Virus record (IMG/VR): IMGVR_UViG_2579778622_000006
Span: 1 to 20,803 of that record
Reading direction: 5' to 3' (one strand)
DNA length: 20,803 nt
Origin: a virus
Lineage: Duplodnaviria; Heunggongvirae; Uroviricota; Caudoviricetes
The translations under genes were made by a program, and so were the position numbers. Positions 1 to 15,918 of this stretch are shown here, one piece after another; position 1 is the first letter of the stretch, and every line of letters begins with the position of its first letter. Below the pieces are notes generated by a model. It saw nothing but the letters and a program-made list of their open reading frames with translations. It had not been told where the DNA came from and did not search any database.

Positions 1-257
1 AAAAATAAAATAAATACAACAACCTTACGGTGTATTTTGATGTCATTAATGTGAAAAAATTCAATGATATCAAATGGTTTTGTAAAAACACATGGTTGTT
101 GTATCGCGTATTTGATGGCGTAACAGAAAGTGATTTTTAACTTTACCGCTCTGTAACTACGGATTATTCCATGCTGGCACGGAGAACGGCTACGGCATGA
201 CGCCACCCAGCCTATACAGAACAGTAAAGCCGATAAATTGTTAATCACGCGCAGCAA

Positions 258-452: not shown

Positions 453-473
453 CCACATGCCGGAAAGGACCCG

Positions 474-497
474 CAAAAAAAGCCGGATTTCTCCGGC
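474..497 (-). terminator. rho-independent terminator ending the capsid operon
   Basis: Hairpin GCCGGA-tttc-TCCGGC (482-497) with an A-run at 474-481 on plus, giving a U-tract after the stem on minus. Lies 7 nt past the stop of the 504-917 gene. Confidence 0.6.
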
Positions 498-503
498 CTT
501 GTC

Positions 504-917: not shown

Positions 918-929
918 CGTTCCCCCTGC

Positions 930-1265
930 TTATCGGGCCAGCGGCTGAACGGATACGCCGGAACCCGCAAAGGCGGCGCATTTTTTCGCATCGGTGTCGA
1001 CGCTGTCAGGCCAGTTAACGGCGGCAATATTGAATATCCCCGTTTTGTAACACTGTGCTGATTTCTGCTTTGACGTGTCCACGGGGTGCGAAGTCAGATA
1101 AACAGCTTTGCCAGATTCCTGACCATCCCACGCCTTAAACTCGCCATTGTCTGCCAGCATCAGCGGGGTAAATTCCTGAATAACGCCAGCATCAGCGGCA
1201 AAATGTACCAGCGTCGTGGATACCTGCTGGCTGCCTGCAAATAACTCAATATATGGAGCGTCCAT
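930..1265 (-). CDS. head decoration protein, lambda gpD family
   Basis: 111 aa. Shares TPLMLxD, AWDG, YKTG and AFAG motifs with recalled lambda gpD. GGGGGA RBS. Confidence 0.85.
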   Translation of the reverse strand: MDAPYIELFAGSQQVSTTLVHFAADAGVIQEFTPLMLADNGEFKAWDGQESGKAVYLTSHPVDTSKQKSAQCYKTGIFNIAAVNWPDSVDTDAKKCAAFAGSGVSVQPLAR

Positions 1266-1276
1266 AGAATCCCCCG

Positions 1277-2332
1277 TTAAGCAATTTTGACGGTAACAAA
1301 TTTGCGAATATCTGCCGGTACCGGCTGCGGTGCGCTGTGCGTCTGCACGTACTCAATCGCCGGATCGCCGTCCTCAATCCAGTTTTTCGGGTAGTACATG
1401 TTTTGCGTTGCGCCCGTTCTTACCGCTTCCTGATCCATAATCGCACCATAGGCCACCAGCCCTTTATTATTGGTGTTACCCAGGACCAGCAAATCAGGCT
1501 CAAGGAAATATTTTTCGGTGCCGTCGCTGTCAGTGTATTTGCCGGAATAGACGATAAGGGCCAGATCACCAAGATAGCCTTTAAAGCTCACCACTTCGCC
1601 CAGGTTTTTACAGGCCAGCTCGGCGGCGGATTCTGATCCACGGGAAAGATCGTACAGTTCACGGAATTTTTTAAAGCTGCGTAATGTGCGCCATACCTCA
1701 CCGCCCATAATCATGACGTTGGCGGGGCAACCTGCCTGATCAGCATAAAGCTCGATGTCATAGATTGGGTCGTGCATGTCTTTATCCTGCTGGGACCATT
1801 TTTTACCACTGGCCTGCTGTATGATGCAGTTTTCCGGTATTTTCCAGTCGATTTCATAGCGTTCTATGCCTTCGCCCTCAATGATGTTTTTTCCGGTCGT
1901 TACCGCATTCACCGCCAGCCATTCCACGCGCGCCTTAATGGCGTTTATCTGGCGGCGCATGTTGCCAGTAATCAGGCGCATACGGCGGTAAGTTGGATCG
2001 TTAAGCTGTGCCGGATCTTCTCCAGCCATGCGCATGATGGTCTTTGTTGGATCGATTTCGTGCTTTGGCTTCATGTAGCCAGGTTTAATCGTGCTGGTTT
2101 CGTACCCTTTATCGCGCTGGACCTGACTACCCACCATAGGCGAACAGAAAGCCGACATCGTAACCTCTTCAATGTCCAGGGTGTCCAGCATGATGTTTTG
2201 GGTGTTGAAGGTCGCCACGTTCGGGAAAAACAGCGTGGTAAACAGCGGACTAAATTTAAATTCCGAAATATCCCCGCGATTCAGGTACGCGAAAAGCTGG
2301 TTAGTTGTAAGTGCCGTTGCTTTGCCTGTCAT
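1277..2332 (-). CDS. major capsid protein, lambda gpE family
   Basis: 351 aa. Matches recalled lambda gpE in several blocks: EFKFSPLF, PGYMKPKHE, EDPAQLNDPTYRRMR, YPKNWIEDGDPA. GGAGG RBS. Confidence 0.9.
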   Translation of the reverse strand: MTGKATALTTNQLFAYLNRGDISEFKFSPLFTTLFFPNVATFNTQNIMLDTLDIEEVTMSAFCSPMVGSQVQRDKGYETSTIKPGYMKPKHEIDPTKTIMRMAGEDPAQLNDPTYRRMRLITGNMRRQINAIKARVEWLAVNAVTTGKNIIEGEGIERYEIDWKIPENCIIQQASGKKWSQQDKDMHDPIYDIELYADQAGCPANVMIMGGEVWRTLRSFKKFRELYDLSRGSESAAELACKNLGEVVSFKGYLGDLALIVYSGKYTDSDGTEKYFLEPDLLVLGNTNNKGLVAYGAIMDQEAVRTGATQNMYYPKNWIEDGDPAIEYVQTHSAPQPVPADIRKFVTVKIA

Positions 2333-2538
2333 TATTCACCTCCGTGAACCTGATTCATACCCAGCGCCGCACGTAAATAGGTACGCACCTGCCAGCCTGT
2401 TGACGGCTCAACCATCGCCAGCGGATCAAGTCCTGCCGCAATGCCTGCTTTTACATTCTGCTGGTGGCGTTCCTTGAGCGCCTCCACGATGTCGGGGCTT
2501 ATGTAGACCGTCACCCCGCCTTTTTTCTCTTCTGCCAT
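2332..2538 (-). CDS. hypothetical small protein, first gene of capsid operon
   Basis: 68-aa ORF with AGAGGA RBS; its stop overlaps the MCP start (TAATG), suggesting translational coupling. Confidence 0.5.
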   Translation of the reverse strand: MAEEKKGGVTVYISPDIVEALKERHQQNVKAGIAAGLDPLAMVEPSTGWQVRTYLRAALGMNQVHGGE

Positions 2539-2573
2539 AGTCAGAAATTCCTCTTTGACTTAAAAAATCATAA

Positions 2574-2623
2574 CTGGATGTTCATCCAGTCCTGATTATA
2601 ATCATGATTGCATTTTGCGCAAC
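2574..2623 (-). promoter_or_regulatory. candidate sigma70 promoter of capsid operon with a 16-bp palindromic operator
   Basis: On minus strand: -35 TTGCGC (2617-2622), 16-nt spacer, -10 TATAAT (2595-2600), then perfect palindrome CTGGATG-TT-CATCCAG (2574-2589) at the predicted start region. Confidence 0.35.
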
Positions 2624-2703
2624 AATATTGAGTTACGTTGCAAATTATGAAATGATTATCCCGATCATGTGTGCCAGTGCACCATAAAAAACCTCGTATA
2701 CAA

Positions 2704-2743
2704 AAGCCCGATAAGCCCCCTGTGACCTTATCGGGCTTTTTTT
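2704..2743 (+). terminator. strong intrinsic terminator hairpin on plus strand with no upstream plus-strand CDS
   Basis: 10-bp stem CCCGATAAG(G)/CTTATCGGG with an 11-nt loop, followed by TTTTTTT (2737-2743). Confidence 0.5.
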
Positions 2744-2748
2744 AGGCG

Positions 2749-2771
2749 TAAAAAAGCCGGATTGCTCCGGC
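2749..2771 (-). terminator. rho-independent terminator after the ProQ/FinO gene
   Basis: Hairpin GCCGGA-ttgc-TCCGGC (2756-2771) with an A-run at 2749-2755 on plus (U-tract on minus). Confidence 0.55.
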
Positions 2772-2796
2772 TTCGTCTCTTCATGTGGTCAGGGTT

Positions 2797-3381
2797 TTAT
2801 GCTTTCCGTACGCCCGAGGAACTGGCATTTTTCAGAATAATATTATGCCCTGCTGGTGGCTTACCGTTATGCTTATTTTCTGCCTTCATGTTTCTGCGCT
2901 CCTGCTGTTTTTTCTTCATCTCATCCAGTCGCTTCCCCGCGTTCAACTGGTGCTCCTGTGTCACCTCCCCGCACGGATGGCCTTTCAGGTCGTAACGCAC
3001 GCCACCAGCCATCAGGGAACGGTAATATCGCACTGAACTGACATAATACGCCAGCGTTGCGCGAAGCGCTCCCTGACCTAATGAAATACCTCTCGCAGTA
3101 ATATCCTCCATCAGGTCATCAAATATGCCAACCTTAAGCGGTCTGGGCGATTCCTGGCTGAAAAGTTCAGGCCAGAGCGCGGCAAGGCGTTCAACGCGTC
3201 TGATATTTTTTTTCCGGCTCTTTTCTGATTTGCGTTTTGCTGCCGTCTTCTGTTGTGTTTTCTGCTCGCGGCTCTGCTTTTGCGCTGGTGTGGTTTTATC
3301 CGGCTGTTCAGCCTCCTGCGTCTTTTTCTGCGGTGTGCCGTATATGCCTTTTGGTTTTCGGTTAATGGTCAGCTTTGTCAT
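2797..3381 (-). CDS. ProQ/FinO-domain RNA-binding protein with lysine-rich N-terminal tail
   Basis: 194 aa from the ATG at 3381 (GGGGGAG RBS). C-terminal PLKVGIFDDL...LRATLAYYVSSVRYYRSL...RYDLKGHPCGEV matches the recalled E. coli ProQ N-terminal FinO domain (PLKIGIFQDL...RVDLDGNPCGEL). Confidence 0.75.
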   Translation of the reverse strand: MTKLTINRKPKGIYGTPQKKTQEAEQPDKTTPAQKQSREQKTQQKTAAKRKSEKSRKKNIRRVERLAALWPELFSQESPRPLKVGIFDDLMEDITARGISLGQGALRATLAYYVSSVRYYRSLMAGGVRYDLKGHPCGEVTQEHQLNAGKRLDEMKKKQQERRNMKAENKHNGKPPAGHNIILKNASSSGVRKA

Positions 3382-3460
3382 GTTCTCCCCCTTTGTGCTG
3401 TTCCACCAGCGGCATCTGCTACCCCGTGTCGCTCCCGCTGGTGTCGTGTTTCCCCGCCTG

Positions 3461-3781
3461 TTAATAACCGTCATCATTTACGTTATCAGGGTAATCACGC
3501 CATATTTCATCAGTAAGCGACGGTAGCCCCATCTGTTGTATTGTCCTGTCTGCGGCCCTTCTGACTGCGTGAACATCATAACGGTTTTCAGGTATCGGGC
3601 GCTTTGCCTTCCTGATACATTCCCTTGCTCTCATTGCCGCAAGTTCTCTGTGCCTGTCTTCCTGAAGAGTAATCATCACATCCTGCCACCTTCTGGCAGC
3701 CCGTCGCCACAGTCCCCTGCTCTCGAGTTCTTCTGCTGTCGCGTCGCTTATTGTCCGGTTCTTCGGTGTGCTGTTGTTCAT
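3461..3781 (-). CDS. PerC-family-like transcriptional regulator
   Basis: 106-aa ORF containing AEELESRGLWRRAARRW, the motif I associate with PerC/Pch-type regulators. Assigned from memory of the motif only. Confidence 0.5.
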   Translation of the reverse strand: MNNSTPKNRTISDATAEELESRGLWRRAARRWQDVMITLQEDRHRELAAMRARECIRKAKRPIPENRYDVHAVRRAADRTIQQMGLPSLTDEIWRDYPDNVNDDGY

Positions 3782-3798
3782 GTTGCTCCCCGCCTGAT

Positions 3799-4209
3799 TC
3801 AGAAGGGTATATCATCTCCGTAGGGGTCATCGCCTCCCGCTGGTGGCTCATTCCCCTGTGTGCCTGTGGTTTTGCGTCTGTTCCCGCCATGACGTGCCGC
3901 ACGCGCACTGATTACGCTGTCTGCGATAACCTGCCAGCCCTGCCGCGTTTCCCCGTTCTGTCCGGTCCACTGGCTCACCTGCATGTTACCCGCCACGCTC
4001 AGGAGTTCACCTTTGCGGTGCTTTGCCAGTGCTTCGGCCTGTCTGCCAAACGCCAGCACAGATAACCACATCGTCGCCGTTCCGTCATCTGCCTGGCTGC
4101 ACGGAAGGGGGACCGCCATACTCGCCATCGCCATTTGTGTCCCCTTGCTGGTGGTCTTTAACTGCGGGTCAGCCACCAGCCGCCCGTAAGCCGCTATCTG
4201 TGCTGTCAT
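3799..4209 (-). CDS. ssb: single-stranded DNA-binding protein (short SSB)
   Basis: 136 aa with OB-fold-like core (WLSVLAFGRQAE...KGELLSVAGNMQVSQWTGQNGETR), a Gly-rich linker and the canonical acidic C-terminal tip DDIPF. Confidence 0.85.
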   Translation of the reverse strand: MTAQIAAYGRLVADPQLKTTSKGTQMAMASMAVPLPCSQADDGTATMWLSVLAFGRQAEALAKHRKGELLSVAGNMQVSQWTGQNGETRQGWQVIADSVISARAARHGGNRRKTTGTQGNEPPAGGDDPYGDDIPF

Positions 4210-4457
4210 GCTGTATGCTCTCCGGTTTTAACGTTGATGGTTGTCACCTGTTCCGCTCCGGCAATCTCCCGTTCTGTCAGCGTGGCAAAATTTGCCGCTA
4301 CCGTTGTCATGAATGCGCTTATCAGTTCGGGATGTGCTTTCGCGTATCCTTCTCCCGCGTGGCGGTCTATCGTTCTGATTGCCACCTTTAAGGCGTGCTC
4401 TGTCATGTCTAACGCTTTATATTTTGGCGCTGTCTTATCTCTGGTTTTTCTGTTCAT
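4206..4457 (-). CDS. hypothetical protein
   Basis: ORF 4206-4487; the upstream extension translates the iteron repeats (GEWWG), so the ATG at 4457 is preferred. Overlaps the ssb start. Confidence 0.4.
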   Translation of the reverse strand: MNRKTRDKTAPKYKALDMTEHALKVAIRTIDRHAGEGYAKAHPELISAFMTTVAANFATLTEREIAGAEQVTTINVKTGEHTA

Positions 4458-4458
4458 T

Positions 4459-4670
4459 CCCCACCACTCCCCACTTTTGCTCCCCACTTTTTAAATTCCC
4501 CACTTGCTCCCCACCTCGTTTTTTGAGTGAATCTAATGCTTTGTTTTTCATTGCGTTTTTTACTCCCCACTTTTTTGGATATATACAGGTGGGAAAGTGG
4601 GGAATTATGTTTCAATTTTGTTAAATTCCCCACTCTCCCCACTTTTACTACCCACTTTTTACAGTGGGTA
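4459..4670. repeat. iteron array, putative satellite replication origin
   Basis: At least 9 copies of TCCCCAC(TTTT) in direct orientation (4459, 4468, 4481, 4496, 4508, 4563, 4626, 4635, 4649) plus inverted copies (GTGGGAAAGTGGGGAA at 4588-4604; CAGTGGGTA at 4662-4670), flanking an AT-rich core (4570-4585). Sits immediately 3' of the helicase gene. Confidence 0.6.
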
Positions 4671-6074
4671 AACATCATCCCCATCGACACAAATCACGCC
4701 GTCTTTTTCCAGCTTGGACAGCCAGCGCCGGAAGTGCTTCATCTCATACCCCAGCTTTTTCATATCGTCGCGGAGAAGGGCGATAGTGCATGGCTCTTTG
4801 TGTGCCGTCCGCGTTCTGATGCACTGCCATAGCGCGGTATGGTTTTCCGTCTTGTTGCCTGCCTCCTCGATGCGCTCCAGTTCAACGGGAGAGCGCGGCT
4901 TATCAACCACCACCAGCGACGTGATTAACTCCCCGTCAGCGTCGGTAAAAAGCTCCACCACGCGTAAATCGTAGGCGGCCTCTTTCAGTTCCTCCGCGTC
5001 CTTCATTTTGGTGCAGGATATAACCAGGGCTTTACTGTCTGCACCTTCTCGGCGAATACGGTATTCAGCGTCCAGAGATGCACGAAATGCACTGGAACCA
5101 CGCGCCCCCTTTGTTTCATCCTTGCCGGAATGGTGGACCACCAGCACCGTGGCCCCTGTGCGTCGTTTCAGGTCGTCACATCCACGGATAAACGCCCCCA
5201 TATCCCGCGCGTCATTTTCATCATTACCGCCAAAGCAACGCGCCAGCGTATCCAGAATAATCATGCGTACCGGTTTACCCGTTTCCCGTTCAACCTGGCG
5301 GGAAGCGATAACCATTTCATCAACATCAAGCGGGGCTGCCGGAAAAATCGGGCGGTTTACCAGGTACAGATTTTTCACCCGTTCATCATTAACGATTTCC
5401 CATGCCTTGATACGACGGGGGACACCAATGCCACCTTCACCGACAACATACATCACCGAACCATGCGCCACCCTGCGGCCTCCCCAGTGGCGCCCCGTGG
5501 CAACATGACACGCCCAGGAACACGCAAGGAATGATTTATAGGAACCGCTCGCACCGTATGTGCTGCACAATGAATTAGCCGGAATCACGCCCTTAACGAC
5601 ATAATCAAGCTGTGTGTCGTATCCTGCAGATCCAATGCTCATGGGTAGCGTGGTTTTTCGCTGGCTGTATTGCTCATCAGTAAGTATTTCCCCGCGCTCT
5701 GCCTGTTCGCGGATCCGTTGCAGGTAGTCGCGCCATTCCTCCCGCTTCTGGCTGTGCATTCCCTCGGGGTAATAACTCGCATCCCGTACACCTGCCGCCG
5801 CCAGTTTTTGCCCGATGGCATTAATATTTGATGGCTTGATGTGGCCTGCCTTGTACAGCCGGACACAATAGCGACCATCGTCGATAATTTTCAGGTCTGC
5901 CAGTTCGTCAAGCTGACTGTCTCCCAGCCATACTGGCGGGACGTTATCGCCAGCAAGTCGCCCGTCCTGTTCCTGCCATTGTTTTGCGTGCGCCCAGGCA
6001 TCACTACCTGCAAAAATAATGACTTCGGTCATTTTGTTGTGTGGCTGTTTTTTTAAGTTCGGTGCCAGTTTCAT
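4659..6074 (-). CDS. replication protein: RecA-fold (AAA_25/DnaB-like) helicase with C-terminal winged-helix
   Basis: 471 aa. Walker A GASGSYKS; Walker B-like ILDTLARCF; VLVVHHSGKD motif typical of RepA/DnaB-like ATPases; C-terminal basic wHTH-like segment. Confidence 0.8.
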   Translation of the reverse strand: MKLAPNLKKQPHNKMTEVIIFAGSDAWAHAKQWQEQDGRLAGDNVPPVWLGDSQLDELADLKIIDDGRYCVRLYKAGHIKPSNINAIGQKLAAAGVRDASYYPEGMHSQKREEWRDYLQRIREQAERGEILTDEQYSQRKTTLPMSIGSAGYDTQLDYVVKGVIPANSLCSTYGASGSYKSFLACSWACHVATGRHWGGRRVAHGSVMYVVGEGGIGVPRRIKAWEIVNDERVKNLYLVNRPIFPAAPLDVDEMVIASRQVERETGKPVRMIILDTLARCFGGNDENDARDMGAFIRGCDDLKRRTGATVLVVHHSGKDETKGARGSSAFRASLDAEYRIRREGADSKALVISCTKMKDAEELKEAAYDLRVVELFTDADGELITSLVVVDKPRSPVELERIEEAGNKTENHTALWQCIRTRTAHKEPCTIALLRDDMKKLGYEMKHFRRWLSKLEKDGVICVDGDDVYPL

Positions 6075-6370
6075 TTTTTATCCCTGAATCCGTTAATCAT
6101 GGTTTTCATCTTCTGAATATTGGCGCGTGCTTTCTCCCTGCTGGTTGGTTTACTGCGGGGCGCTGCCTGTACCAGAGAAAAATCACGCCGGAACTGATAA
6201 ACAGGCATCACGCAGTCATATTCGTAGCCATCACGGCGGTAAGTGATGCGCCGTTCTGCCACGCCTTTAATCGTTACCGTACCGCCGTAGTTATCACGGA
6301 AAATATCGCCGGGACGGATTTCAGGCCGAGCGGGGCCGCTGGCAGTAAAGCCAGAATTTTTCTTTTTCAT
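6071..6370 (-). CDS. hypothetical protein
   Basis: 99-aa ORF with AGGAAA RBS; its stop overlaps the helicase start (ATGA). Confidence 0.5.
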   Translation of the reverse strand: MKKKNSGFTASGPARPEIRPGDIFRDNYGGTVTIKGVAERRITYRRDGYEYDCVMPVYQFRRDFSLVQAAPRSKPTSREKARANIQKMKTMINGFRDKK

Positions 6371-6374
6371 GGTT

Positions 6375-6575
6375 TTATTTTCCTGTCAGTGATTCCGGCT
6401 TTATTCCGGCGCGAATACAGGCTTCAGAAAAAAAAGCCAGAGAACCAATAACCTCATTATTTCTAAGGCGGCATTGCGATTTCACTTTCCCTTTATCCAG
6501 GAATATCAAAACGCGCCCCGTATAATCAGATGGCACATTAAGCACTACAGGTAAGTGCGCTTCATGATTATTCAT
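6375..6575 (-). CDS. hypothetical protein
   Basis: 66 aa from the ATG at 6575, preceded by a perfect AGGAGG (6585-6590). The longer ORF start at 6644 lacks an RBS. Confidence 0.5.
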   Translation of the reverse strand: MNNHEAHLPVVLNVPSDYTGRVLIFLDKGKVKSQCRLRNNEVIGSLAFFSEACIRAGIKPESLTGK

Positions 6576-6855
6576 GGCTAACCACCTCCTGGAATTTTCT
6601 TCTGTAACGCGCCTCTGCCACATATTCAGCATAGTCCGACGCAATATTGAGAATATCGCTACCCGTTCCTGAATGTTCGGCGGTTTCCAGTAAAAAACAT
6701 GCAGCTTTTACCATGTCAGCAACACATAACAGCGCAATATCTGTATCTTCCGGTGTGCCATCAAATTCCTGTTTCAGGGCATTAAAACGATCATCACGCA
6801 TAACCCCATATTCACAATCAGCAATCAGGATGGCTTTGGCCTCATTCAGTGCCAT
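6568..6855 (-). CDS. hypothetical acidic protein, first clear gene of the leftward replication operon
   Basis: Protein-like C-terminal 95 aa of the 6568-7809 ORF; the stop overlaps the next start by 8 nt. Start is uncertain because the ATG at 6855 has no clear RBS. Confidence 0.45.
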   Translation of the reverse strand: MALNEAKAILIADCEYGVMRDDRFNALKQEFDGTPEDTDIALLCVADMVKAACFLLETAEHSGTGSDILNIASDYAEYVAEARYRRKFQEVVSHE

Positions 6856-7009
6856 ATCAGCGGTAAGCTGTGCGTAGGCCAGCAAATGCGGGATTATTGC
6901 CCCTGTATATTCCGGCTCTCTGATAATGTGGTCGGATGTGTTGATTAAATAGTTTGTGCGAAAAATGCACCTGTAACCATCAGTTAACAACGGATATACA
7001 GGGGGGACC

Positions 7010-7180
7010 ATGAATGATAAGGGGGTGCCGTTTGATGTGCTCCTGCAAAAGCTGAATGCTGCACGCGCCGCAAGGGAACGTGAGCGCATGAGTAATAACC
7101 CTGTCCCTCCTGAATTACCTCGCCCTGAACATTTTCCGCTTGAGGATTTCATCAGGGGACGAATCCGAACAAAACGATAA
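7010..7180 (+). CDS. hypothetical small protein (56 aa)
   Basis: ATG preceded by a G-run; shares the motif FPLE(D/R)FI with the 7424-7618 ORF. Ambiguous: the opposite strand is one long open frame. Confidence 0.25.
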   Translation: MNDKGVPFDVLLQKLNAARAARERERMSNNPVPPELPRPEHFPLEDFIRGRIRTKR

Positions 7181-7231
7181 CCGCCGCCGTGATATGAGGC
7201 ATCACGACGCAATGCATTACAGGTGAGCACC

Positions 7232-7348
7232 ATGAACAAATCCATATTATCCCCCACAGTTCTGGACGTAAACACAAAGCAGCGACAGATATTATTACGC
7301 GCCGTCATTAAAGCCAGACACGAGAAATTAAACCAAATCTTAAAATAA
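7232..7348 (+). CDS. hypothetical small protein (38 aa)
   Basis: AGGTGA RBS 5 nt upstream of the ATG; amphipathic, protein-like sequence. Confidence 0.3.
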   Translation: MNKSILSPTVLDVNTKQRQILLRAVIKARHEKLNQILK

Positions 7349-7423
7349 GATACGCCGCTACCGCTGTAAGTCTTCATCAGAAACAGAAAACGCCAGAGCA
7401 GATGAGCACGGAGGTAACTCTTT

Positions 7424-7618
7424 ATGAAAATAAACGAATCAGGGGAAATTACCGAAGCCAGCGTGGTACGCCAGCGGAGGCGGGAACGACGGGTACGGCC
7501 CCCCGCGCCATCCGATAATTTCCCGCTTGAGCGCTTCATCAGTGAACGGCCCCGCATACGCTGGAACGGCACAACCCCATACCCCGAGGAGAGACAGACA
7601 AAAAACAAACAGCGATGA
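7424..7618 (+). CDS. hypothetical small basic protein (64 aa)
   Basis: GGAGGT RBS 8 nt upstream of the ATG; Arg-rich; FPLERFI motif paralogous to the 7010 ORF. Confidence 0.3.
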   Translation: MKINESGEITEASVVRQRRRERRVRPPAPSDNFPLERFISERPRIRWNGTTPYPEERQTKNKQR

Positions 7619-7897
7619 TGAAATCTGGAGGCCAATACCATCACGCAGCCATCAGGAGATTGCTGACGCGCTTCCTGTTCGCTGGTGGCCTCGATGGTAA
7701 TCACGCGCGGTTGTGCAGTGCTCAGGGCGATAAAACGCCACACAAAGGCCGTTTGTGTGTGCGCCAGGCGTGGGGTATGCTGTCTTACAGCCATAAAACT
7801 ACCTCTCATAACGGTTTGTGGTTAGAAGCCCCGTTACTGCTCCAACAGTGCGGGGCTTCGTCGTTTCAATTGCTGAATTGCATGTATCAGCCCTTGT

Positions 7898-7951
7898 GGT
7901 ATTCAGATTACGTTTTGGTGAATAACATTTCAAGTCTTTTTTGGTATTCAC
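7898..7951 (+). promoter_or_regulatory. candidate operator repeats upstream of the RHH gene
   Basis: TGGTATTCA at 7898-7906 and 7942-7950, with an inverted partner GGTGAATAA at 7916-7924 (TATTCA-N12-TGAATA dyad), in the AT-rich region upstream of the 7995 start. Confidence 0.35.
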
Positions 7952-7994
7952 TTTTGTATTACACTGCATCACGTTATTAATCGGAGGTGCAAAC

Positions 7995-8300
7995 ATGTCC
8001 ACGAGTTCTGTTAACAATAAGTCACAGCAACTGAATGCCAGATTTCCACATGAAGTAGTGAGTGGCATTGAGGCATCCCTACAGCCGGGGGAAACTAAAG
8101 CGAATTTTATAGTTACGGCTGTACGCGGAGAGATCGCCCGCCGCCAGGCAGAAGGAAGAGGAGAAAATCCCCTAGTTTCTTCGCTCGATGCACTGGCGCA
8201 GGTGGAAAAAATCGGTGTCAAAGCTGCCGAGGAGATCGGGCAACTCGTCGCCGTTGCGCGTGAAGAACTCCAGCGGCGCAAAGCCAAAGAGCAGGAATAG
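7995..8300 (+). CDS. ribbon-helix-helix-like DNA-binding protein with coiled-coil C-terminus
   Basis: 101 aa from the ATG at 7995 (GGAGGTG RBS). N-terminal beta-strand/helix pattern (LNARFPHEVVSGIEAS...KANFIVTAVRGEIARR) typical of RHH/Arc-type regulators; followed by a terminator. Confidence 0.6.
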   Translation: MSTSSVNNKSQQLNARFPHEVVSGIEASLQPGETKANFIVTAVRGEIARRQAEGRGENPLVSSLDALAQVEKIGVKAAEEIGQLVAVAREELQRRKAKEQE

Positions 8301-8331
8301 CCCACCAGCAAGCCACCACACTGATCACATT

Positions 8332-8360
8332 GGCCACCGTGACAGGTGGCCTTTGTTTTG
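8332..8360 (+). terminator. rho-independent terminator after the RHH gene
   Basis: GGCCACC-gtgaca-GGTGGCC followed by TTTGTTTTG. Confidence 0.6.
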
Positions 8361-8454
8361 CCTGTTATCCGGCAATTGTGGAGCTTCGTCACACGGTTGA
8401 TATAATTCCCCTGCTCAGATTCATTTTTTGCGCGGCAGGTAAATTGTTCAGAAA

Positions 8455-8482
8455 GGCGGCTCCTTATCGGGGCCGCTTTTTT
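8455..8482. terminator. second hairpin with T-tract between the convergent RHH and alpA genes
   Basis: GCGGC-tccttatcgg-GCCGC followed by TTTTTT (8477-8482) on plus; possibly bidirectional. Confidence 0.4.
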
Positions 8483-8508
8483 CGTGTTTGTCATATCTGT
8501 GATACCCG

Positions 8509-8715
8509 TTAAGCAGCCGTTCCGCGTGCTTCCTGTTCGCGTTCTTTCTGCCAGGCCAACACATCATCCTCATACCATCCGCGACGGCGTAAACCAACGC
8601 GAAAACCCTGCGGAAATTCTCCGGCGTTGATCATGCTTTGCAGCGTGCTGTCTGCCTTGATGTGGATAATTTTTTTTACTTCCTGGCGAAAGATAATTTT
8701 TCTGATTGCTTCCAT
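8509..8715 (-). CDS. alpA: AlpA-family phage transcriptional regulator / excisionase-like HTH protein
   Basis: 68 aa; pattern IIFRQEVKK...GEFPQGFRVGLRRRGWYEDDVLAW matches the AlpA/Vis HTH_17 architecture. Confidence 0.8.
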   Translation of the reverse strand: MEAIRKIIFRQEVKKIIHIKADSTLQSMINAGEFPQGFRVGLRRRGWYEDDVLAWQKEREQEARGTAA

Positions 8716-8848
8716 CGTGATTTACCTTGTGAATCCGGTGTATTCCGGTGACAAATACGGTAAATCATCGGATATGGGTAAAAACAGTTCCCACCGTTTT
8801 TAAACGGTATACACCGTTTTTTATATTGATGATTTGAAATGGAATTAT

Positions 8849-8872
8849 AAAAAAAGCGGCATTTCTGCCGCT
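8849..8872 (-). terminator. rho-independent terminator after the orf83/int transcript
   Basis: AGCGGCA-gaaa-TGCCGCT on minus followed by TTTTTTT (plus 8849-8855 is an A-run); 10 nt past the stop at 8883. Confidence 0.55.
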
Positions 8873-8882
8873 TCCAGGATTG

Positions 8883-9134
8883 TTACCGCCATTTTTTGGG
8901 CCTGCCTCCGATCTTCATAGATGCCGGACGTACGACCTTATCAATACTTACCGCCAGATTTCTGGAAGCGCCACGGGATACCAGAAAATCTACTACCTGT
9001 TTTTTTGATGGGGCCGTCGTCCTGTCCTCCGGATCGTAGGTTGACCAAAATTCATGCTGAACCATCAGGGCCAGTTGCAGCCCGTCGCAATTGCATCTGA
9101 TATTTTTTTGCATCTTAACGGTTTCATGTTTCAC
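8883..9134 (-). CDS. hypothetical protein between int and alpA
   Basis: 83-aa ORF (GTG at 9134 or ATG at 9113) with a terminator directly downstream. Start uncertain. Confidence 0.45.
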   Translation of the reverse strand: MKHETVKMQKNIRCNCDGLQLALMVQHEFWSTYDPEDRTTAPSKKQVVDFLVSRGASRNLAVSIDKVVRPASMKIGGRPKKWR

Positions 9135-9211
9135 GGCCTTGTCGTTAAATTTGATGCAATTATACGACGGTTTTACATGGTTTTCGTAGTTTTTACTGGT
9201 TTTCTGTACAG

Positions 9212-10453
9212 CTACACGGCTCGGATACCCCTTTTACCACTGGCGAGGGTTACGCCCGTCGCCGCAGCCTCGACAAATTCGCCCCACCAGCGCATCAGCA
9301 CGATGCGTTTTTCTATGTAGTTGCTCCGGTTGTATGCCCGTCTAACTTCGTTGGTGTCGACGTGGGCAAGTGCCGCCTCTATTACGTCCGGCTCGAATCC
9401 TTCCTCGTTCGCTGCTGTGCTGAATATGGCGCGTAATCCATGAGACACCAGCACGCCAGCGAATCCCATACGCCGCAATGCTGCGTTAGCTGTCTGGCTG
9501 TTCATCGGCTGCTGTGGGTCTTTCAGACTTGGGAAAACGTAATTGCGGTGGTGGCTGATTGGTTTCATGGCCTCCAGCACCGCCATAGCCTGACCGGAAA
9601 GCGGGATAACGTGATCCCTGCGCATCTTCATGCGTCCGGCAGGTATCGTCCATTGCTTCGCGTCCAGGTTGATTTCATCCCACCGCGTTGATGACGCTTC
9701 GGCGGGACGGGTTACGGTCAGTAACTGCCATTCAATCAGTAATCTGGTCTGCCGTTCTGTTGCCGATACTGATAAAGCCTGCATAAGCTCGGGCAGCTGT
9801 TCGGGGCGGATTGTTGGCATATGTTTTTTTACAGGTGAGGGAAACGCCTTACGCACATTCATAGCCGGATTGGCATCAATCAGCCCACTGTTGGCGGCGT
9901 AATCCATTACCTCATTAACGCGCTGTAAAACCCGCTTGAGTGTTTCCAGGTTGCCGCGCTCCTTGATGGGGGTAAGCACTTCAACGAACCTTCGGGCGGT
10001 GAGGGTATCTATTGGCGTGTTGCCGATGAACGGGAATACATATTTATCCAGCGAACGCCAGATGTCTTTAATCGTGTTGGGGGCCAGATTCTGGCTGATT
10101 TTCACCTGGTACCATGCCGCCGCCACATTTTCGAACGTGTTCCCTTGTCTTCGGGCCTCTGTCTCTCTTTTTTGCCTCTCGTGGTCCTGCGGGTCAGTTC
10201 CGGCACTGATTAACGTCCTGTACTCGCTACGGCGTTTTCTGGCATCAGCCAGGGAAACATCTTCAAGCGATCCAAAACTCAGCAATATTCTTTTTTTGTC
10301 CGATGGTCGGTAGTAGGAAAATCTCCAGAGTTTTGATCCAGACGGTTTGACCAGGAGAAAAAGCCCTCCGCCGTCCTGCAGGGTGTACTCCTTTTGCGCT
10401 GGTCTGGCTGCTTTGATCTGCACTGTGGTTAATGGGTGTGTTTTTCTCGCCAT
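9212..10453 (-). CDS. int: tyrosine recombinase, P4-type integrase
   Basis: N-terminal arm-binding-like domain (LTTVQIKAARPAQKEYTLQDGGGLFLLVKPSGSKLWRFSYY), catalytic C-terminus with R...HGLR and terminal RAYNRSNY (Tyr). Adjacent to the tRNA 3' remnant. ATG at 10453 preferred over the GTG at 10471. Confidence 0.9.
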   Translation of the reverse strand: MARKTHPLTTVQIKAARPAQKEYTLQDGGGLFLLVKPSGSKLWRFSYYRPSDKKRILLSFGSLEDVSLADARKRRSEYRTLISAGTDPQDHERQKRETEARRQGNTFENVAAAWYQVKISQNLAPNTIKDIWRSLDKYVFPFIGNTPIDTLTARRFVEVLTPIKERGNLETLKRVLQRVNEVMDYAANSGLIDANPAMNVRKAFPSPVKKHMPTIRPEQLPELMQALSVSATERQTRLLIEWQLLTVTRPAEASSTRWDEINLDAKQWTIPAGRMKMRRDHVIPLSGQAMAVLEAMKPISHHRNYVFPSLKDPQQPMNSQTANAALRRMGFAGVLVSHGLRAIFSTAANEEGFEPDVIEAALAHVDTNEVRRAYNRSNYIEKRIVLMRWWGEFVEAAATGVTLASGKRGIRAV

Positions 10454-10485
10454 ATGTCTATGATTCCACACGAAAAAACAGGGTT

Positions 10486-10539
10486 TTAGTTATACGGCTT
10501 TAGTTATACGTCAGCCCGTATAACTAAACGTATAACTAA
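10486..10539. repeat. integrase arm-type site candidates: four 11-mers TTAGTTATACG (two direct, two inverted)
   Basis: Direct copies at 10486-10496 and 10500-10510; inverted copies CGTATAACTAA at 10517-10527 and 10529-10539; between the int start and the att core. Confidence 0.5.
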
Positions 10540-10590
10540 AAAATCCGGCTGATAGCTTATAAATCCGGTGATGTTCGGTGACTAAAAAAC

Positions 10591-10625
10591 ATAAAAAAAC
10601 CCGCCAATCAAGTGATTAGCGGGTT
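10591..10625 (-). terminator. hairpin with U-tract downstream of the tRNA 3' remnant (weak terminator)
   Basis: AACCCGC/GCGGGTT stem with a 14-nt loop; the A-run at 10593-10599 on plus gives a U-tract on minus. Confidence 0.35.
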
Positions 10626-10636
10626 ATCCCTGTCTT

Positions 10637-10664
10637 ATCCGGTGCTTTCCGGTGATATCCGGTG
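10637..10664. repeat. three tandem (A/T)TCCGGTG heptamer-core repeats at 10-bp period next to the att core
   Basis: ATCCGGTG (10637-10644), TTCCGGTG (10647-10654), ATCCGGTG (10657-10664). Related copies at 10564-10580 and at 8731-8750 in the alpA promoter region. Confidence 0.45.
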
Positions 10665-10671
10665 GGCGATT

Positions 10672-10720
10672 TGGTCGGCACGAGAGGATTTGAACCTCCG
10701 ACCCCCGACACCCCATGACG
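10672..10720 (-). other. tRNA-Pro (GGG-type) 3'-end fragment, 49 nt, not an intact gene; integration (att) junction
   Basis: Minus-strand read CGTCATGGGGTGTCGGGGGTCGGAGGTTCAAATCCTCTCGTGCCGACCA equals the anticodon-loop-to-CCA portion of E. coli tRNA-Pro as recalled; the sequence 5' of it cannot form the acceptor or D arm. Confidence 0.65.
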
Positions 10721-10912
10721 CCGCTTGTAAAACGCTGAGAGCCGCGCTATTGCTGGTTAGAAGTACCATTTGCATGTATAAACAAACAGTGCTTTTTCGA
10801 CATAATCTGCTCTATATACTTCAATGGCTTACATGGTGGTTTCTCCCCATGTTTGAATAGTTTCGAAGAGTTGTGTGACATAATGCCAGAATAAACTACT
10901 AGAGGCTGGATA

Positions 10913-11764
10913 ATGAAAAAAAGAACTAAAAAAGGCAGTAACATTCGTTTCCGAGAACACACTGAGGTTGAGAGGTCTTACATTAGCCTTTATAAGATCT
11001 TCTGCCGCGCTTGTGAAATTTCCGCGGCCATATCACTGAATCAAAGCGGAATTAAGACTGACGGCAGGGGAATACGGGCTGCAAATATTTTCACTCGTCA
11101 AGTGTTGACTGCGCATAGTCTTAAGAAACTACTACCAGTACTGCGAAACGGAGTTAATCCCGATGATACAGTATGGGATGTAACCACTATCGCACTTGTG
11201 TCCAGAAGTGTGATGGAAAATTTTCAGGCGCTTTTTTATTACGGAACGGAAACGGTCTCGGAAGCGGAGGCTGACTTTCGTTTTCGAATTTTCCAGAAAG
11301 ACAGAAATGTTAAATGGCGTGATATCAGACTGAAGGCTGGTGAATCTGAAGAATCACTGGAGGAGTTTTTCACCGGCATACCAAAGCAGCAGGAGGAGAT
11401 AGTGAACCATGAATTCTATAGTTCACTATCTAAAGAACAAAAGAATAGTCTCAAAAACAGGGCCGAAATGTATTATACCAAAGCTGAGTTCGAAGCTCGC
11501 TGCCCGCGGTTAGCCGACATTGCACTACATCACCAGTTACTATCAAATCTGGCTCATCCATTGCCACTGGCTATCCACAGGATTGATGAATTTAGCGGTC
11601 ATGGTGCACCCAGTGAAGCTGACATCTGCTTAGTCATAATATCCCTGAAGGTTGCTACAGACTGCCTAATTGCGTCAGTTGAGGGGATGGGCGAAAAATT
11701 TGCCGATAGTATCGGTATACATTATCGGTCAATGATTGAAGAACTCTCCAATTACTCACTTTGA
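10913..11764 (+). CDS. hypothetical protein, AT-rich cargo gene (candidate accessory or defence function)
   Basis: 283-aa ORF, the only plus-strand gene between the att remnant and the lambdoid int; visibly lower GC than its flanks; convergent terminator hairpin downstream; R-x6-H motif (RLADIALH) in the C-terminal third. Confidence 0.6.
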   Translation: MKKRTKKGSNIRFREHTEVERSYISLYKIFCRACEISAAISLNQSGIKTDGRGIRAANIFTRQVLTAHSLKKLLPVLRNGVNPDDTVWDVTTIALVSRSVMENFQALFYYGTETVSEAEADFRFRIFQKDRNVKWRDIRLKAGESEESLEEFFTGIPKQQEEIVNHEFYSSLSKEQKNSLKNRAEMYYTKAEFEARCPRLADIALHHQLLSNLAHPLPLAIHRIDEFSGHGAPSEADICLVIISLKVATDCLIASVEGMGEKFADSIGIHYRSMIEELSNYSL

Positions 11765-11792
11765 AATTAATACATTCCTCAACTTCCAACAC

Positions 11793-11821
11793 AGAGCAAC
11801 CCGTCCAATTTGGTTTGCTCT
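11793..11821. terminator. hairpin between the convergent 283-aa gene and int
   Basis: AGAGCAA...TTGCTCT stem (with extension) followed by GCTTTATAC. Confidence 0.4.
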
Positions 11822-11857
11822 GCTTTATACTAAAGCAATAAAGGGAGTAATTTATTA

Positions 11858-13036
11858 TTAGCTGGCTTTAATTTCTCCATGGGGAACGACAACCCAATCT
11901 ATATGATTTTGCGTGTAGATCTTGGTTGACTTCGCATCGCTGTGCGCCATTCGTCCTTGTGGATCGATACCCTGCTGATCGAATAGATGCGCTGCTAGTG
12001 CTCGAATTTCGTGAAAGGTTGGTCTTTCATCCATTGGTAGATTGTCGCATAAACCTAGTTTGTCCCGTGTAGCTGAAAACGACCTACTCAAATAGTCCGG
12101 TGCAACTTGAGTAGGATGTGAAACCTCTTTGCTGCGTTTAACTTGGCGTTCTGGGATCCTGTGAACGACAAACGGACTGGCCACATTATCTCGGCTATCG
12201 TCAATTATCCGTTTCAACTCTTCACCAATTGGTATTGCAACGTGTGACGCCTCTTTTTGTTGCACTTTTTGCCTGTGGATGTAAAGCGTCCCATATATGC
12301 CATTTTGTGGTTGTTCGAACCAGACACATCCACATATACCGTCTTTAGGTTCGCGAATTGAGTAACGGATTCGCGATACTTCGAGTCGTGCATGTGTAGT
12401 CTGCAATGCTAGGTCCATTGCTGTTCTTAACCATGGTGCAGCGGCCTGCCTGATAGCTATAAAATGCTCGAGTGACAGGCGCCGTCTTTTCTTCTCATCA
12501 GTCCTACGCATTTTTTTTCTGATGGCCGGGTTATCCAGCATTAGTGATTCATCGACCGCATAAGAGAACAACTTTTTAAGAAAGCTGACCTTTCTGTTCT
12601 GCACATTTGCGGATGCGCTGGCATGATATTTGTTGATGTAGGTATTAACGTGTTCAAGTTCGATATCGCATGCCGGAACATTTACGAAAAACGCTTTTAC
12701 GCGTAGAGCGTCATTTTTCCAGTCATCTAAGGTGCTCTGGGAAGGACGTTCGTCTTCGATAATTCGGGCCATTATGTGATCAACATGTTCAGCAAATGGT
12801 TTTGCTTCTCCGATAACACCGCCAGATTCTCTAATAAGATTATCTACTGATGGAGATAATTCTGGTCGCATCCTCAGGTTGTACTCTCTGGCGATTGCAA
12901 TGGCTATTGCCCTATCCTTACCTATATTTTTCTTCTTTCCGGTAATAAGTGTGAATTTATAAACACCTCGATCTTTATCAAAAATCAGATAATCAGGAAG
13001 ATGTCTGTATTCTTTTTTACGTGGCCTTGCCGCCAT
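11858..13036 (-). CDS. int: tyrosine integrase, lambda Int family
   Basis: Aligns to recalled lambda Int in several blocks (LSLEHFIAIRQAA..WLRTAMDLA vs LTADEYLKIYQAA..WLRLAMELA; RPTFHEIRALAAHLF vs PPTFHELRSLSARLY). ATG at 13036 with GAGGGGTGA RBS; the ORF-track start at 13042 is a GTG. Confidence 0.9.
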   Translation of the reverse strand: MAARPRKKEYRHLPDYLIFDKDRGVYKFTLITGKKKNIGKDRAIAIAIAREYNLRMRPELSPSVDNLIRESGGVIGEAKPFAEHVDHIMARIIEDERPSQSTLDDWKNDALRVKAFFVNVPACDIELEHVNTYINKYHASASANVQNRKVSFLKKLFSYAVDESLMLDNPAIRKKMRRTDEKKRRRLSLEHFIAIRQAAAPWLRTAMDLALQTTHARLEVSRIRYSIREPKDGICGCVWFEQPQNGIYGTLYIHRQKVQQKEASHVAIPIGEELKRIIDDSRDNVASPFVVHRIPERQVKRSKEVSHPTQVAPDYLSRSFSATRDKLGLCDNLPMDERPTFHEIRALAAHLFDQQGIDPQGRMAHSDAKSTKIYTQNHIDWVVVPHGEIKAS

Positions 13037-13038
13037 GG

Positions 13039-13248
13039 TCACCCCTCATTTATTAACTTGCGAACAGCTTGACTAACCATTGAGTCGACTCCCCATTTTT
13101 CTGTTTCGCAGACAAAAACAGAACCGTCCACGATACGCCCCATGAGCAGACCGTTCTCGACCCAGCGTTTTATCGTTCGGTTGTCAGGAATTGAGCCATT
13201 AGAGAATTCACGGCGTCCCCATTGGCTCGCTTTCATTAGTTTTGCCAT
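13039..13248 (-). CDS. xis: excisionase (Xis-like)
   Basis: 69 aa from the ATG at 13248 (GGAGAAA RBS). Pattern ASQWGRREF...RTIKRWVENGLL...DGSVFV resembles lambda Xis (LQEWNARQ...ETVRRWVRE). Lies immediately upstream of int. Confidence 0.7.
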   Translation of the reverse strand: MAKLMKASQWGRREFSNGSIPDNRTIKRWVENGLLMGRIVDGSVFVCETEKWGVDSMVSQAVRKLINEG

Positions 13249-13309
13249 GGCTGTTTCTCCACTTAACCCGCTGCACACGGGCAGTAATATCAAATTTCAG
13301 TCCTGATAA

Positions 13310-13525
13310 TTAATTTTGTTCTATGGTTGCTACCTGTTTAATTGGCCTGATGCTGTCCAGGAGCAGTCGGCGGCGCGTATTTTCTGCAAAGTGGCGGCGT
13401 CCGGTTTCTTTGTGGTAAAACTCGTTTTTTCCGACGACCCACATCCGCTTTGTCTGGTGCAGTTTTTTTACCTGCGGACCGTTTCGGGTAATAACAATTC
13501 CTGTATGAGTTTTTATCACGCTCAT
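13310..13525 (-). CDS. hypothetical protein
   Basis: 71-aa ORF with GGAGAA RBS; start overlaps the upstream stop (ATGA). Confidence 0.5.
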   Translation of the reverse strand: MSVIKTHTGIVITRNGPQVKKLHQTKRMWVVGKNEFYHKETGRRHFAENTRRRLLLDSIRPIKQVATIEQN

Positions 13526-13884
13526 TTCTTATTCTCCGGTGCTTTCGGCATTACTGCCCAGTGAGTGATATTGACGTTTTCAAGGTCCCCGACCTGAAAT
13601 GTCCACTGCCATTCTCCGGTTTCTTTTTGCCCCCATGTGTACCAGAGAGAACGCCAGCCAATCAGCCAGCCTTCTCCGTTAGCATCAAATAACAGAACAC
13701 TTTCATTTGCTGGTGGCAGTTCAGCTGACACTGGTATTACTTTGTTTTCCAGTGCTGCACATTTAGCTTCAAGCGCATCTAATTTACGCACCAGGTATTC
13801 AGCATCCGTTTCATTCACTTTCAGGTCTCGTGGTACACATCTCCCGCGAAGAAACCCTTCCATTTCGAAAACATTCATGCGCAT
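13522..13884 (-). CDS. hypothetical prophage protein (Trp-rich C-terminal domain)
   Basis: 120-aa ORF, GGAG RBS 8 nt upstream of the ATG; coiled-coil N-terminus and Trp-rich C-terminus. Confidence 0.5.
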   Translation of the reverse strand: MRMNVFEMEGFLRGRCVPRDLKVNETDAEYLVRKLDALEAKCAALENKVIPVSAELPPANESVLLFDANGEGWLIGWRSLWYTWGQKETGEWQWTFQVGDLENVNITHWAVMPKAPENKK

Positions 13885-15109: not shown

Positions 15110-15153
15110 TGTCAAGTATAAAAAAACCTGCCGAAGCAGGTTCATAACATTGA

Positions 15154-15828: not shown

Positions 15829-15844
15829 AACGAAATTAAAACCT

Positions 15845-15915: not shown

Positions 15916-15918
15916 TGT

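Follow-up and report, generated by a model that had tools for sequence, protein, structure and literature searches.

Which strand of a phage satellite carries the genes? The question is raised by positions 6856–7860 of a viral DNA of 20,803 nucleotides (nt) (IMG/VR record IMGVR_UViG_2579778622_000006, Caudoviricetes), the whole of which is hereafter called the window. Positions 1–10720 of the window are an approximately 11-kb Escherichia coli satellite of the phage-inducible chromosomal island (PICI) type. A preliminary description, made from the letters of the DNA, had set three short plus-strand open reading frames (ORFs) against one long open frame on the minus strand, and had likened a direct repeat and a neighbouring hairpin to the RNA immunity of satellite P4. 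The coding ambiguity is real, and both strands matter: the plus strand encodes a family of small proteins, and the minus strand carries a frame that, as judged from related satellites, is kept open by selection. We regard the locus as largely explained by two elements that are new here, an orphan small-protein family and a variant of the P4 eta/kil ORF that tolerates and shapes the genes on its opposite strand. Our overall reading, which we hold with reasonable though incomplete confidence, is that the small plus-strand genes are real and that the minus-strand frame is a counterpart of eta, kept open for translation.

Small-protein genes on the plus strand

The three plus-strand ORFs are present as described and share one frame. 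The first (7010–7180; hereafter ORF56) encodes 56 residues with a C-terminal FPLEDFI followed by a basic tail, and is identical to a database protein, P0007, named 'hypothetical protein' in E. coli. The third (7424–7618; hereafter ORF64) encodes 64 residues with the motif FPLERFI, has a GGAGG ribosome-binding site, and meets the 3' end of the opposite-strand Icd-like domain with its own 3' end. As the preliminary description had noticed, both carry FPLE(D/R)FI; they are paralogues with 42% identity that also have a basic stretch and a proline-rich stretch in common. The middle ORF has 38 codons from an ATG (7232–7348) or 41 from a GTG (7223–7348). Together with a remnant of the motif region, it forms a decayed third paralogue (7232–7405, plus strand) with two in-frame TAA codons, located at residue 39 and at the Glu of the P-L-E motif. 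When both TAA codons are read through, this copy aligns without gaps over 55 residues with the first, intact small gene of the related satellite L005 (3067–3270), with an alignment score of 109 against 25 ± 5 for shuffled sequences (maximum 52).

The direct repeat is slightly longer than had been reported. Its two 31-nt copies, at 7131–7161 (encoding HFPLEDFIRGR) and 7518–7548 (encoding NFPLERFISER) on the plus strand, are identical at 25 of 31 positions and lie 387 nt, or 129 codons, apart; a degenerate third copy (7361–7380) is found inside the decayed paralogue. Shuffling 6856–7860 100 times with its dinucleotides kept gave best 31-nt direct matches of at most 22 (mean 19.7), so the repeat exceeds chance. 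Since the copies lie in frame inside the ORFs and the motif is conserved at the protein level, the 25–31-bp repeat is the DNA footprint of a peptide motif shared by two paralogues and not an RNA target.

In L005, four plus-strand genes in tandem encode proteins with this C-terminal motif (PPLEVFL, FALEDFV, FALEDFL, and FALDNFL). A profile of these proteins retrieved 18 proteins from 5.8 billion, and an exhaustive HMMER search of 1.84 billion representatives retrieved 20. All of them have 56–94 residues, come from E. coli or Shigella, and are named 'hypothetical protein', and they share the motif. A subfamily scan of species-representative genomes matched E. coli and Shigella only, and no significant match of the motif proteins to a known family was found in Pfam, NCBIfam, PHROGs, PADLOC, or the PDB sequences. 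A sub-threshold match of ORF56 to Pfam CRF (18 bits for a cutoff of 22.1, E 0.0031) is almost certainly spurious. When a hidden Markov model (HMM) of the family, built without window-type sequences, was run on 405 six-frame segments of the window, ORF56 ranked best (E 7e-7) and ORF64 second (E 1.5e-3), followed by the decayed copy as a borderline match (E 0.046) and the next background segment (0.49). ORF56 and ORF64 are intact members of a genuine orphan small-protein family, unnamed and defined here, that occurs only in E. coli and Shigella satellites.

Several features suggest that the family proteins are translated. The Ala of the motif F-[PA]-L-[ED]-x-F-[ILV] is encoded by GCC, GCT, GCG, and GCA alike, a variation that would swap Arg and Ser in the antisense frame. 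Variability in the sense frames is.38,.34, and.44 at codon positions 1, 2, and 3, leaving the second position most conserved and the third least, as fits plus-strand genes, and pN/pS is lower in the plus frames than in the minus frames. The length and start context of the motif-family genes are also conserved. Because all four Ala codons are used, the second position and the length and start context are conserved, and an independent HMM ranks the window genes first, translation of the family seems likely. In the AlphaFold model of ORF64 (pLDDT 67), a helix at residues 6–22 and a short helix at 34–41 over the motif are predicted, with the rest disordered; the family may accordingly be built from an N-terminal helix, a short amphipathic helix formed by the motif, and a basic tail. 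The motif, as L-E-D-F-L-K-Q, may resemble the C-terminal peptide of FtsZ (I-P-A-F-L-R-K-Q), a likeness that we take as a lead only.

A conserved intergenic element with the hairpin CGTGAT-N7-ATCACG (7166–7223, plus strand) ends in TTACAGG just upstream of the next small gene. Its identity to positions 3001–3058 of L005 is 84.5%, with flanks at about 60%, and in L005 two small genes have it 23 nt before them; most genes of the family are preceded by a TTACAGG-type motif. A stringent sigma-70 scan of 6500–8800 found no promoter. Fragments resembling the small-gene array occur in about one-fifth of complete E. coli genomes (1,198 of 5,426). In O157:H7 (L007, JEONG-1266, 2501–2845; also L006), a remnant of about 76% identity to the array lies among insertion sequence fragments, where the annotation pipeline PGAP calls a minus-strand ORF of 90 residues.

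The open minus-strand frame and selection against stops

The frame opposite these genes was correctly described as open for 413 codons (6568–7809, minus strand). It contains no internal stop, whereas the other two minus frames contain 22 and 26 over its length and 10 each across 7012–7620. Three parts follow one another in it: an Icd/Kil-like domain, the antisense of the small-gene cassette, and a truncated phrog_2512 gene. The Icd-like domain occupies residues 8–64 of the product (NF033153 E 2.4e-14; phrog_6196 E 1e-24). Taken on its own (7618–7794, minus strand), it has a GAGAGG ribosome-binding site and an ATG at 7794 and matches NF033153 at E 4.9e-16; its score of 58.5 bits is above the curated NCBIfam cutoff of 25. 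It has neither a stop of its own nor the usual last ~8 residues, and its C-terminus departs from the canonical ...AARIRQEV.... Residues 291–412 belong to the phrog_2512-family gene (6568–6939, minus strand; E 2.6e-49), which covers positions 31–153 of the 154-position profile. Cassette sequence stands in place of its first ~30–35 codons, and 7011 and 6856 are possible internal starts; the intact homologue in L053 begins MCNNIRPDAAAE. No family matches the middle of the product, in which Cys, Ser, Arg, and Phe abound. The preliminary description was therefore right to call the first ~60 residues protein-like and the middle rich in Arg, Ser, Cys, and Phe, but missed that the last ~120 residues are real protein as well. 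The frame is a composite, whose middle appears to carry no sequence-specific protein information.

In the identical strain, PGAP leaves 6576–7623 without annotation and treats the Icd-like piece as a 'frameshifted' pseudogene; in other strains the same frame becomes an 'Icd-like protein' of 410–540 residues, and elsewhere an 'Ash family protein'. Since PGAP treats the same frame differently by strain, the ambiguity is real and already confuses annotation. The present reading would settle this recurring conflict, in which the frame receives one of these three labels or none and in which small opposite-strand genes are often missed. Two minor features of the Icd-like region may be added here. 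A plus-strand ORF of 121 residues antisense to icd (7615–7980) matches phrog_4106 (E 1.2e-10), a family probably built from shadow ORFs opposite icd, so that a PHROG match alone is not proof of a gene. A terminator-like hairpin (7739–7759, minus strand; CACACAAACGGCCTTTGTGTG then GCGTTTTATC) lies inside the Icd-like coding sequence over a conserved TAFVWRF motif.

Upstream, a second segment of the read-through frame with 231 codons (7799–8494, minus strand) runs antisense through a YlcI-like gene and the leader. It starts 14 nt past the stop of an alpA/vis-like excisionase-regulator gene (8509–8715, minus strand; phrog_66 E 5.5e-7; phrog_2790 E 3e-6, 'excisionase and transcriptional regulator'; Pfam Phage_AlpA E 0.0035, under the curated cutoff). 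This segment is in a different frame from the 413-codon ORF, and its TAG overlaps the ATG at 7809, giving an 11-nt overlap between the two ORFs. The stop of the 413-codon frame overlaps the start of the next gene, an ORF beginning at 6575 with AGGAGG before it, by 8 nt (ATGAATAA). From the alpA-like gene to this next gene, the chain is thus joined by one 14-nt gap and two overlaps.

The usual layout in relatives is an alpA-like gene, then the long frame, a 'leader' of 100–200 nt, and icd. As a rule, the long ORF either opens with a Shine-Dalgarno sequence and an ATG that follow the alpA-like stop by 10–19 nt or overlaps the gene before it by 8 nt. L004 and L055 have the upstream sequence and icd in one continuous frame; in relatives where continuity is broken, the stop of the upstream frame comes a few nucleotides short of the icd ATG, or else the upstream and icd frames overlap. 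On the opposite strand inside the long frame lies a YlcI/YnfO-like or Arc-like gene of the ribbon-helix-helix type, usually followed by one motif-family gene. The YlcI/YnfO-family gene of the window (7995–8300, plus strand; NF041551 E 1.3e-16; phrog_6522 E 1.6e-45) is divergent from icd and probably encodes a ribbon-helix-helix regulator. It is embedded antisense in the read-through frame and has no antisense stop in the register that shares third codon positions with it. In most relatives, icd is at the C-terminal end of the long frame; in the window, the frame runs ~350 codons past the Icd-like domain to 6568, into the next gene, because the cassette sits behind that domain.

Stops opposite the plus-strand genes were counted in a wider sample. 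The window, five annotated loci, and 80 additional loci that carry an Icd-like gene were reduced to 63 sequences at 97% identity, and the opposite-strand genes were defined independently of the open frame, which avoids circularity. In most loci, the stop-to-stop frame holding the Icd-like domain is 300–690 codons long, with 10–45 stops in the other frames; in the open-frame regions of five related loci, each other frame has 16–45. In the shared-third-position antisense register, 58 of the 58 motif genes and 52 of the 53 YlcI-like genes of the 63 satellites have no stop (totals 0 and 1). The other two antisense registers hold 189/99 and 151/207 stops. In the register concerned, the figure for 126 ordinary genes from these satellites is 2.69 stops per 100 codons, with a minimum of 1.21. 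Antisense stops are depleted about 100-fold in one register relative to neighbouring genes. With one sequence per cluster of <80% identity, 0 stops were found where 11.8 and 12.0 were expected, and none of 2,000 simulations was as low (P < 0.0005 each). At the codon level, CAN or TAN follows a T-ending codon in 1 of 460 instances (188 in FALE-motif and 272 in YlcI-like genes; background 0.19–0.22), although these counts were taken from genes chosen inside the open frame and illustrate the rule without testing it.

The constraint extends past the genes, since spacers, leaders, and downstream segments also stay open. Spacers between the YlcI-like and small genes measure 42, 57, or 252 nt and are multiples of 3 in 40 of 40 cases. 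Seven length classes of leader keep the frame (45 of 52 loci), and 40 of 46 distinct leaders contain no stop in the icd frame (16 stops, compared with 191 and 277). Past the small gene, the next 120 nt contain no stop in any of 36 segments. Comparison of homologous satellites, which the preliminary description had proposed as a way to tell the strands apart, thus finds conservation on both: of the motif protein on the plus strand and of a stop-free register on the minus strand. There is selection against stops, and by these counts the openness of the minus frame is maintained by it and not by chance. Such register-specific depletion provides a simple computational marker for frames that are 'translated but not sequence-constrained'. 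In ynfO of the K-12 Qin prophage (L091, 4757–4990; YlcI/YnfO family), the register has 0 antisense stops compared with 3 and 6 and the frame is not open beyond the gene, a control that is uninformative because n = 1 and P is about 0.12.

Probable kinship with P4 eta and competing explanations

In P4, translation of eta is reported to prevent transcription termination, so that upstream helper-induced transcripts reach the replication genes, and the same account has Kil as a truncated Eta, with the CI RNA and seqA inside eta (statements in PMC10111431, citing Forti et al. 1999, J Bacteriol 181:5225). In the P4 record NC_001609, which we checked, eta (8761–8168) starts right after vis (Phage_AlpA E 1.7e-20), the last 65 residues of Eta (Kil) are Icd-like (E 1.6e-21), residues 20–144 are Pfam Phage_ASH, and the C4 and isrK RNAs lie inside eta. 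The layout of the window is homologous: directly behind an alpA/vis-type gene comes a long ORF that is in frame with a small Icd/Kil-like gene, has little protein-like content, and is joined to its neighbours by short gaps or overlaps. On the other hand, P4 eta has 197 codons, contains Phage_ASH and the CI (C4) RNA, and ends at the kil stop. The window ORF has 231 + 413 codons, runs antisense through real opposite-strand genes, and continues from an Icd-like domain without its own stop into the next gene, so that long and short products do not share a stop. Phage P1, where the icd promoter is directly upstream, serves as a negative control: there, the open stretch of the icd frame is just 33 nt long, and 3 stops fall in this frame within the c4 leader. 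Since the layout matches that of P4 and stops are avoided, with P1 as a contrast, the 231- and 413-codon frames are probably an eta-like read-through ORF of the P4 type.

The alpA gene is the helper-induced master regulator of PICIs (10.1101/2022.09.08.507074; PMC11773190). If the two frames act as eta does, a helper phage would switch on alpA, and ribosomes would keep behind RNA polymerase, with no gap, all the way from alpA across the 231- and 413-codon frames and into the next overlapping genes. They would shield ~1.9 kb of RNA that is otherwise untranslated on the minus strand and antisense to other genes or transcripts, and premature, probably Rho-dependent, termination of the helper-induced transcript would be avoided. 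The long frame is thus presumed to be translated and the small proteins to be expressed. That translation of the frame prevents termination is suggested by the selection against stops together with the P4 literature (PMC10111431). The eta/kil principle, to translate a long ORF in order to keep transcribing, would then extend to many E. coli PICI-type satellites, and an eta-like ORF could hold real genes on its other strand, leaving the antisense-stop depletion described above as their trace. The orphan family adjoins the regulatory switch and the cell-division inhibitor of the satellite. It is possible, though we consider it rather doubtful, that the read-through ORF was a permissive cradle in whose antisense strand the ribbon-helix-helix regulator genes and the orphan family, which evolves fast and is largely disordered, settled, or the family arose de novo, co-evolving with the frame under the rule that T never precedes a CAN or TAN codon and C never precedes TAN. 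Were this true, the locus would be a clean natural case of dual-strand coding with one strand constrained only to lack stops.

A number of observations weigh against reading the minus frame as an eta counterpart opposite real genes. Translation of the small genes and of the long minus frame is deduced from sequence statistics, most small genes of the family have a weak, AGG-type ribosome-binding site, and the confidence of the ORF64 model is modest. The leader frame is broken in 7 of 52 loci (four length classes), and the bridging RNA is not C-rich and G-poor (C 0.235, G 0.236) like classic Rho loading sites. No Pfam or Rfam match to Phage_ASH, C4/CI, or isrK was found in the window. Its cassette follows the Icd-like domain, whereas in most relatives the cassette precedes it, and the absence of stops here could have been inherited from such an upstream location and not selected in place.

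The last point leads to an alternative that we judge unlikely, namely that the plus genes are real but the stop-free minus frame across 7012–7620 is a recent legacy of the usual place of the cassette upstream of icd, with no current function in this element and with in-frame junctions by luck. The cassette is carried by only 10 of 5,426 complete E. coli genomes, at 99.8–100% identity and in satellites with different integrases and primases, and this near-identity in differing hosts indicates that it moved recently. Compared with canonical relatives, it took the place of the final ~8 codons of icd and of the first ~30–35 codons of the phrog_2512 gene that follows, which looks like a recombination scar, and in L074 an indel ends the frame early. 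However, the reading frame is preserved across both junctions, the fused ORF has kept the overlap of its stop with the ATG of the next gene, the decayed middle paralogue gained two stops in its plus frame and none in the minus frame, and ~600 nt left untranslated would interrupt a chain of coupled ORFs that has no other gap of this kind. Quite improbable, in our judgement, is that the 413-codon ORF encodes a conventional long multidomain protein (Icd, linker, and phrog_2512) with the plus ORFs as chance shadows, even though PGAP calls such proteins in some strains and, at 2.7 stops per 100 codons, 60 open codons antisense to a real gene are not rare. The Cys/Ser/Arg/Phe-rich middle belongs to no family; the real domains are N-terminal, central, or C-terminal in the long frame depending on the element, and in relatives the frame crosses C4 RNA genes, terminator hairpins, and promoter regions. 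The plus ORFs share length, start context, and motif as a family, and their most conserved codon positions and lower pN/pS are the reverse of what a minus-strand protein would leave.

That base composition accounts for the open frame, a purine-rich plus strand leaving the antisense poor in stops, deserves hardly any credence. The plus-strand AT skew is strongly positive across 7100–7700, but composition is rejected as the cause because the other frames, in the window as in the five related loci, are full of stops; the depletion affects one register specifically and is seen again across 63 non-redundant loci. Ordinary antisense shadow ORFs are likewise long, lie opposite real genes, and use the register in which synonymous choice removes stops. 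They are compositional by-products, whereas the depletion here is about two orders of magnitude, continues through spacers, and has a plausible function. Very improbable as well is the P4-type immunity that had been proposed, in which the repeats would be leader targets like seqA and seqC, pairing with an RNA processed from the hairpin. The part of the P4 resemblance that stands is the vis-eta/kil layout, which is homologous to the P4 immunity region, and the C4 RNA and a1/b1 targets that some relatives carry. The pairing itself found no support: duplexes of the repeats with the hairpin or leader had z of −0.3 to +0.6 for minus-strand RNA and −0.7 to −1.7 for plus-strand RNA relative to shuffles, with no excess on either strand, and no inverted repeat links the direct repeats to the hairpin. 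A cmscan search of 6500–8600, at the gathering threshold and at E ≤ 10, found no C4, CI, or isrK RNA and only weak matches to sar, RsaJ, and isrD. The repeats are, moreover, coding sequence for a motif conserved as protein.

Candidate antisense RNA and the setting of the satellite

The hairpin in question is a conserved GC-rich structure at 7825–7860, between the divergent ribbon-helix-helix gene and icd. In a set of 20 relatives, compensatory changes are seen at ten of its pairs, and a U-rich tail follows on the plus strand; because the hairpin is symmetric, covariation does not identify its strand. A TATGAT/TATAAT box is conserved ~40 nt upstream, inside icd codons 3–5 (TATGCT at 7776–7781 in the window), and relatives L011–L090 have an invariant 5' stem-loop at the same position. 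These features are consistent with a hairpin that terminates plus-strand transcripts, including a candidate cis-antisense RNA of ~75 nt (window ~7776–7868, plus strand). This RNA, whose putative promoter is deduced from the box, is predicted to cover the ribosome-binding site and ATG of icd, to which, as a cis-encoded transcript, it would be fully complementary. The hairpin would also terminate transcripts of the small-gene cassette, which are antisense to all of icd.

The candidate resembles sar in the immI region of P22 (arc/ant) and SymR of E. coli (symE). In those systems, too, a small regulator of the ribbon-helix-helix type adjoins the regulated gene, and an antisense RNA over the ribosome-binding site and start ends in a GC-rich hairpin, here one like the sar terminator. 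They differ in that the Rfam scores are far under the gathering thresholds (sar in the window, 17.5 bits for a gathering score of 43; SymR in L051 and L053, 33.3 bits for 61) and that the promoter is suggested by the conserved box. The resemblance remains a lead because the weak matches recur at the same position in separate loci. The immI region of P1 (c4 RNA-icd-ant) likewise begins with an Icd-like gene, which its record notes as 'apparently required for expression of ant', with a 4-nt overlap, and its antisense-RNA control at the icd ribosome-binding site can be likened to the candidate here. In contrast to the window, it has a processed C4 RNA that acts in trans, its promoter lies directly upstream, and its icd frame is closed 33 nt before the ATG.

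Phage_ASH and a C4/isrK-type RNA are present in L005, L008, L066, and P4. Phage_ASH (PF10554; 'Ash family protein' at NCBI) corresponds to the N-terminal portion of P4 Eta, and the C4/CI RNA gene is situated directly under it (L095, 8168–8761; L005, 2531–2897); the conservation of Phage_ASH may owe more to the RNA gene and the open frame than to protein function. Some relatives have two Icd-like genes, each with its own C4 RNA before it (L066, 2931–3135; L005, 2138–2225 and 2619–2706); the c4-a1b1 match in L066 is just below the gathering threshold (45.5 compared with 46.7 bits), and its isrK match is sub-threshold. The satellite family thus uses either trans-acting C4-type control or C4-less leaders. 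A tblastn search of a phage collection with Icd found one satellite-like record only.

Within the 231-codon frame and 3' of the YlcI-like gene, two good intrinsic terminators for plus-strand transcripts are located at 8332–8351 and 8450–8482. Their reverse-complement translation (NCRITGKTKATCHGG) recurs in many relatives and mimics protein conservation. Between the YlcI-like gene and the hairpin, TGGTATTCA occurs twice, at 7897–7905 and 7942–7950, 45 nt apart; relatives have other palindromes at this position, such as GGTGTTCAACACC, and these may be operators of the ribbon-helix-helix protein.

The satellite part of the window matches the E. coli B771 chromosome at 99.99% identity; its counterpart there, at about 1,611,700–1,622,800 of NZ_CP120557, is an island of ~11 kb adjoining tRNA-Pro. 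Its genes, all on the minus strand, encode an integrase, a small AlpA-type excisionase/regulator, the Icd-like protein, DUF4222, a RepA-family helicase, a single-stranded DNA-binding protein (SSB), PerC-family and ProQ/FinO-family proteins, a major capsid protein, and a head-decoration protein. Since this organisation, from integrase to capsid on one strand, matches that of Gram-negative PICIs, the element is assigned to them. The capsid-bearing or Gram-negative PICIs EcCICFT073, EcCIEDL933, EcCIMP1, and 11capE are described with the same int, alpA, and 'Bro/Ash zone', a replication module with RepA-type helicase and SSB, PerC-family and capsid genes in one orientation, and a size of ~11 kb with integration at a tRNA gene (PMC10111431, PMC11773190). 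Opposite-strand small genes and stop avoidance are not described in these two papers.

Identity to B771 ends at 10720, within the tRNA-Pro of B771; ARAGORN finds no tRNA in the window. Positions 10720–20803 belong to a second element, a lambdoid prophage that lies in tandem with the satellite. It has genes for an integrase (11858–13042, minus strand), an S24 CI-like repressor (15154–15828, minus strand), a CII-like protein (16151–16714), a helix-turn-helix replication-type protein (17059–18000), a Dam methylase (18458–19144), and a KilA-N protein (19840–20682). This prophage is a possible helper residing at the same attachment site.

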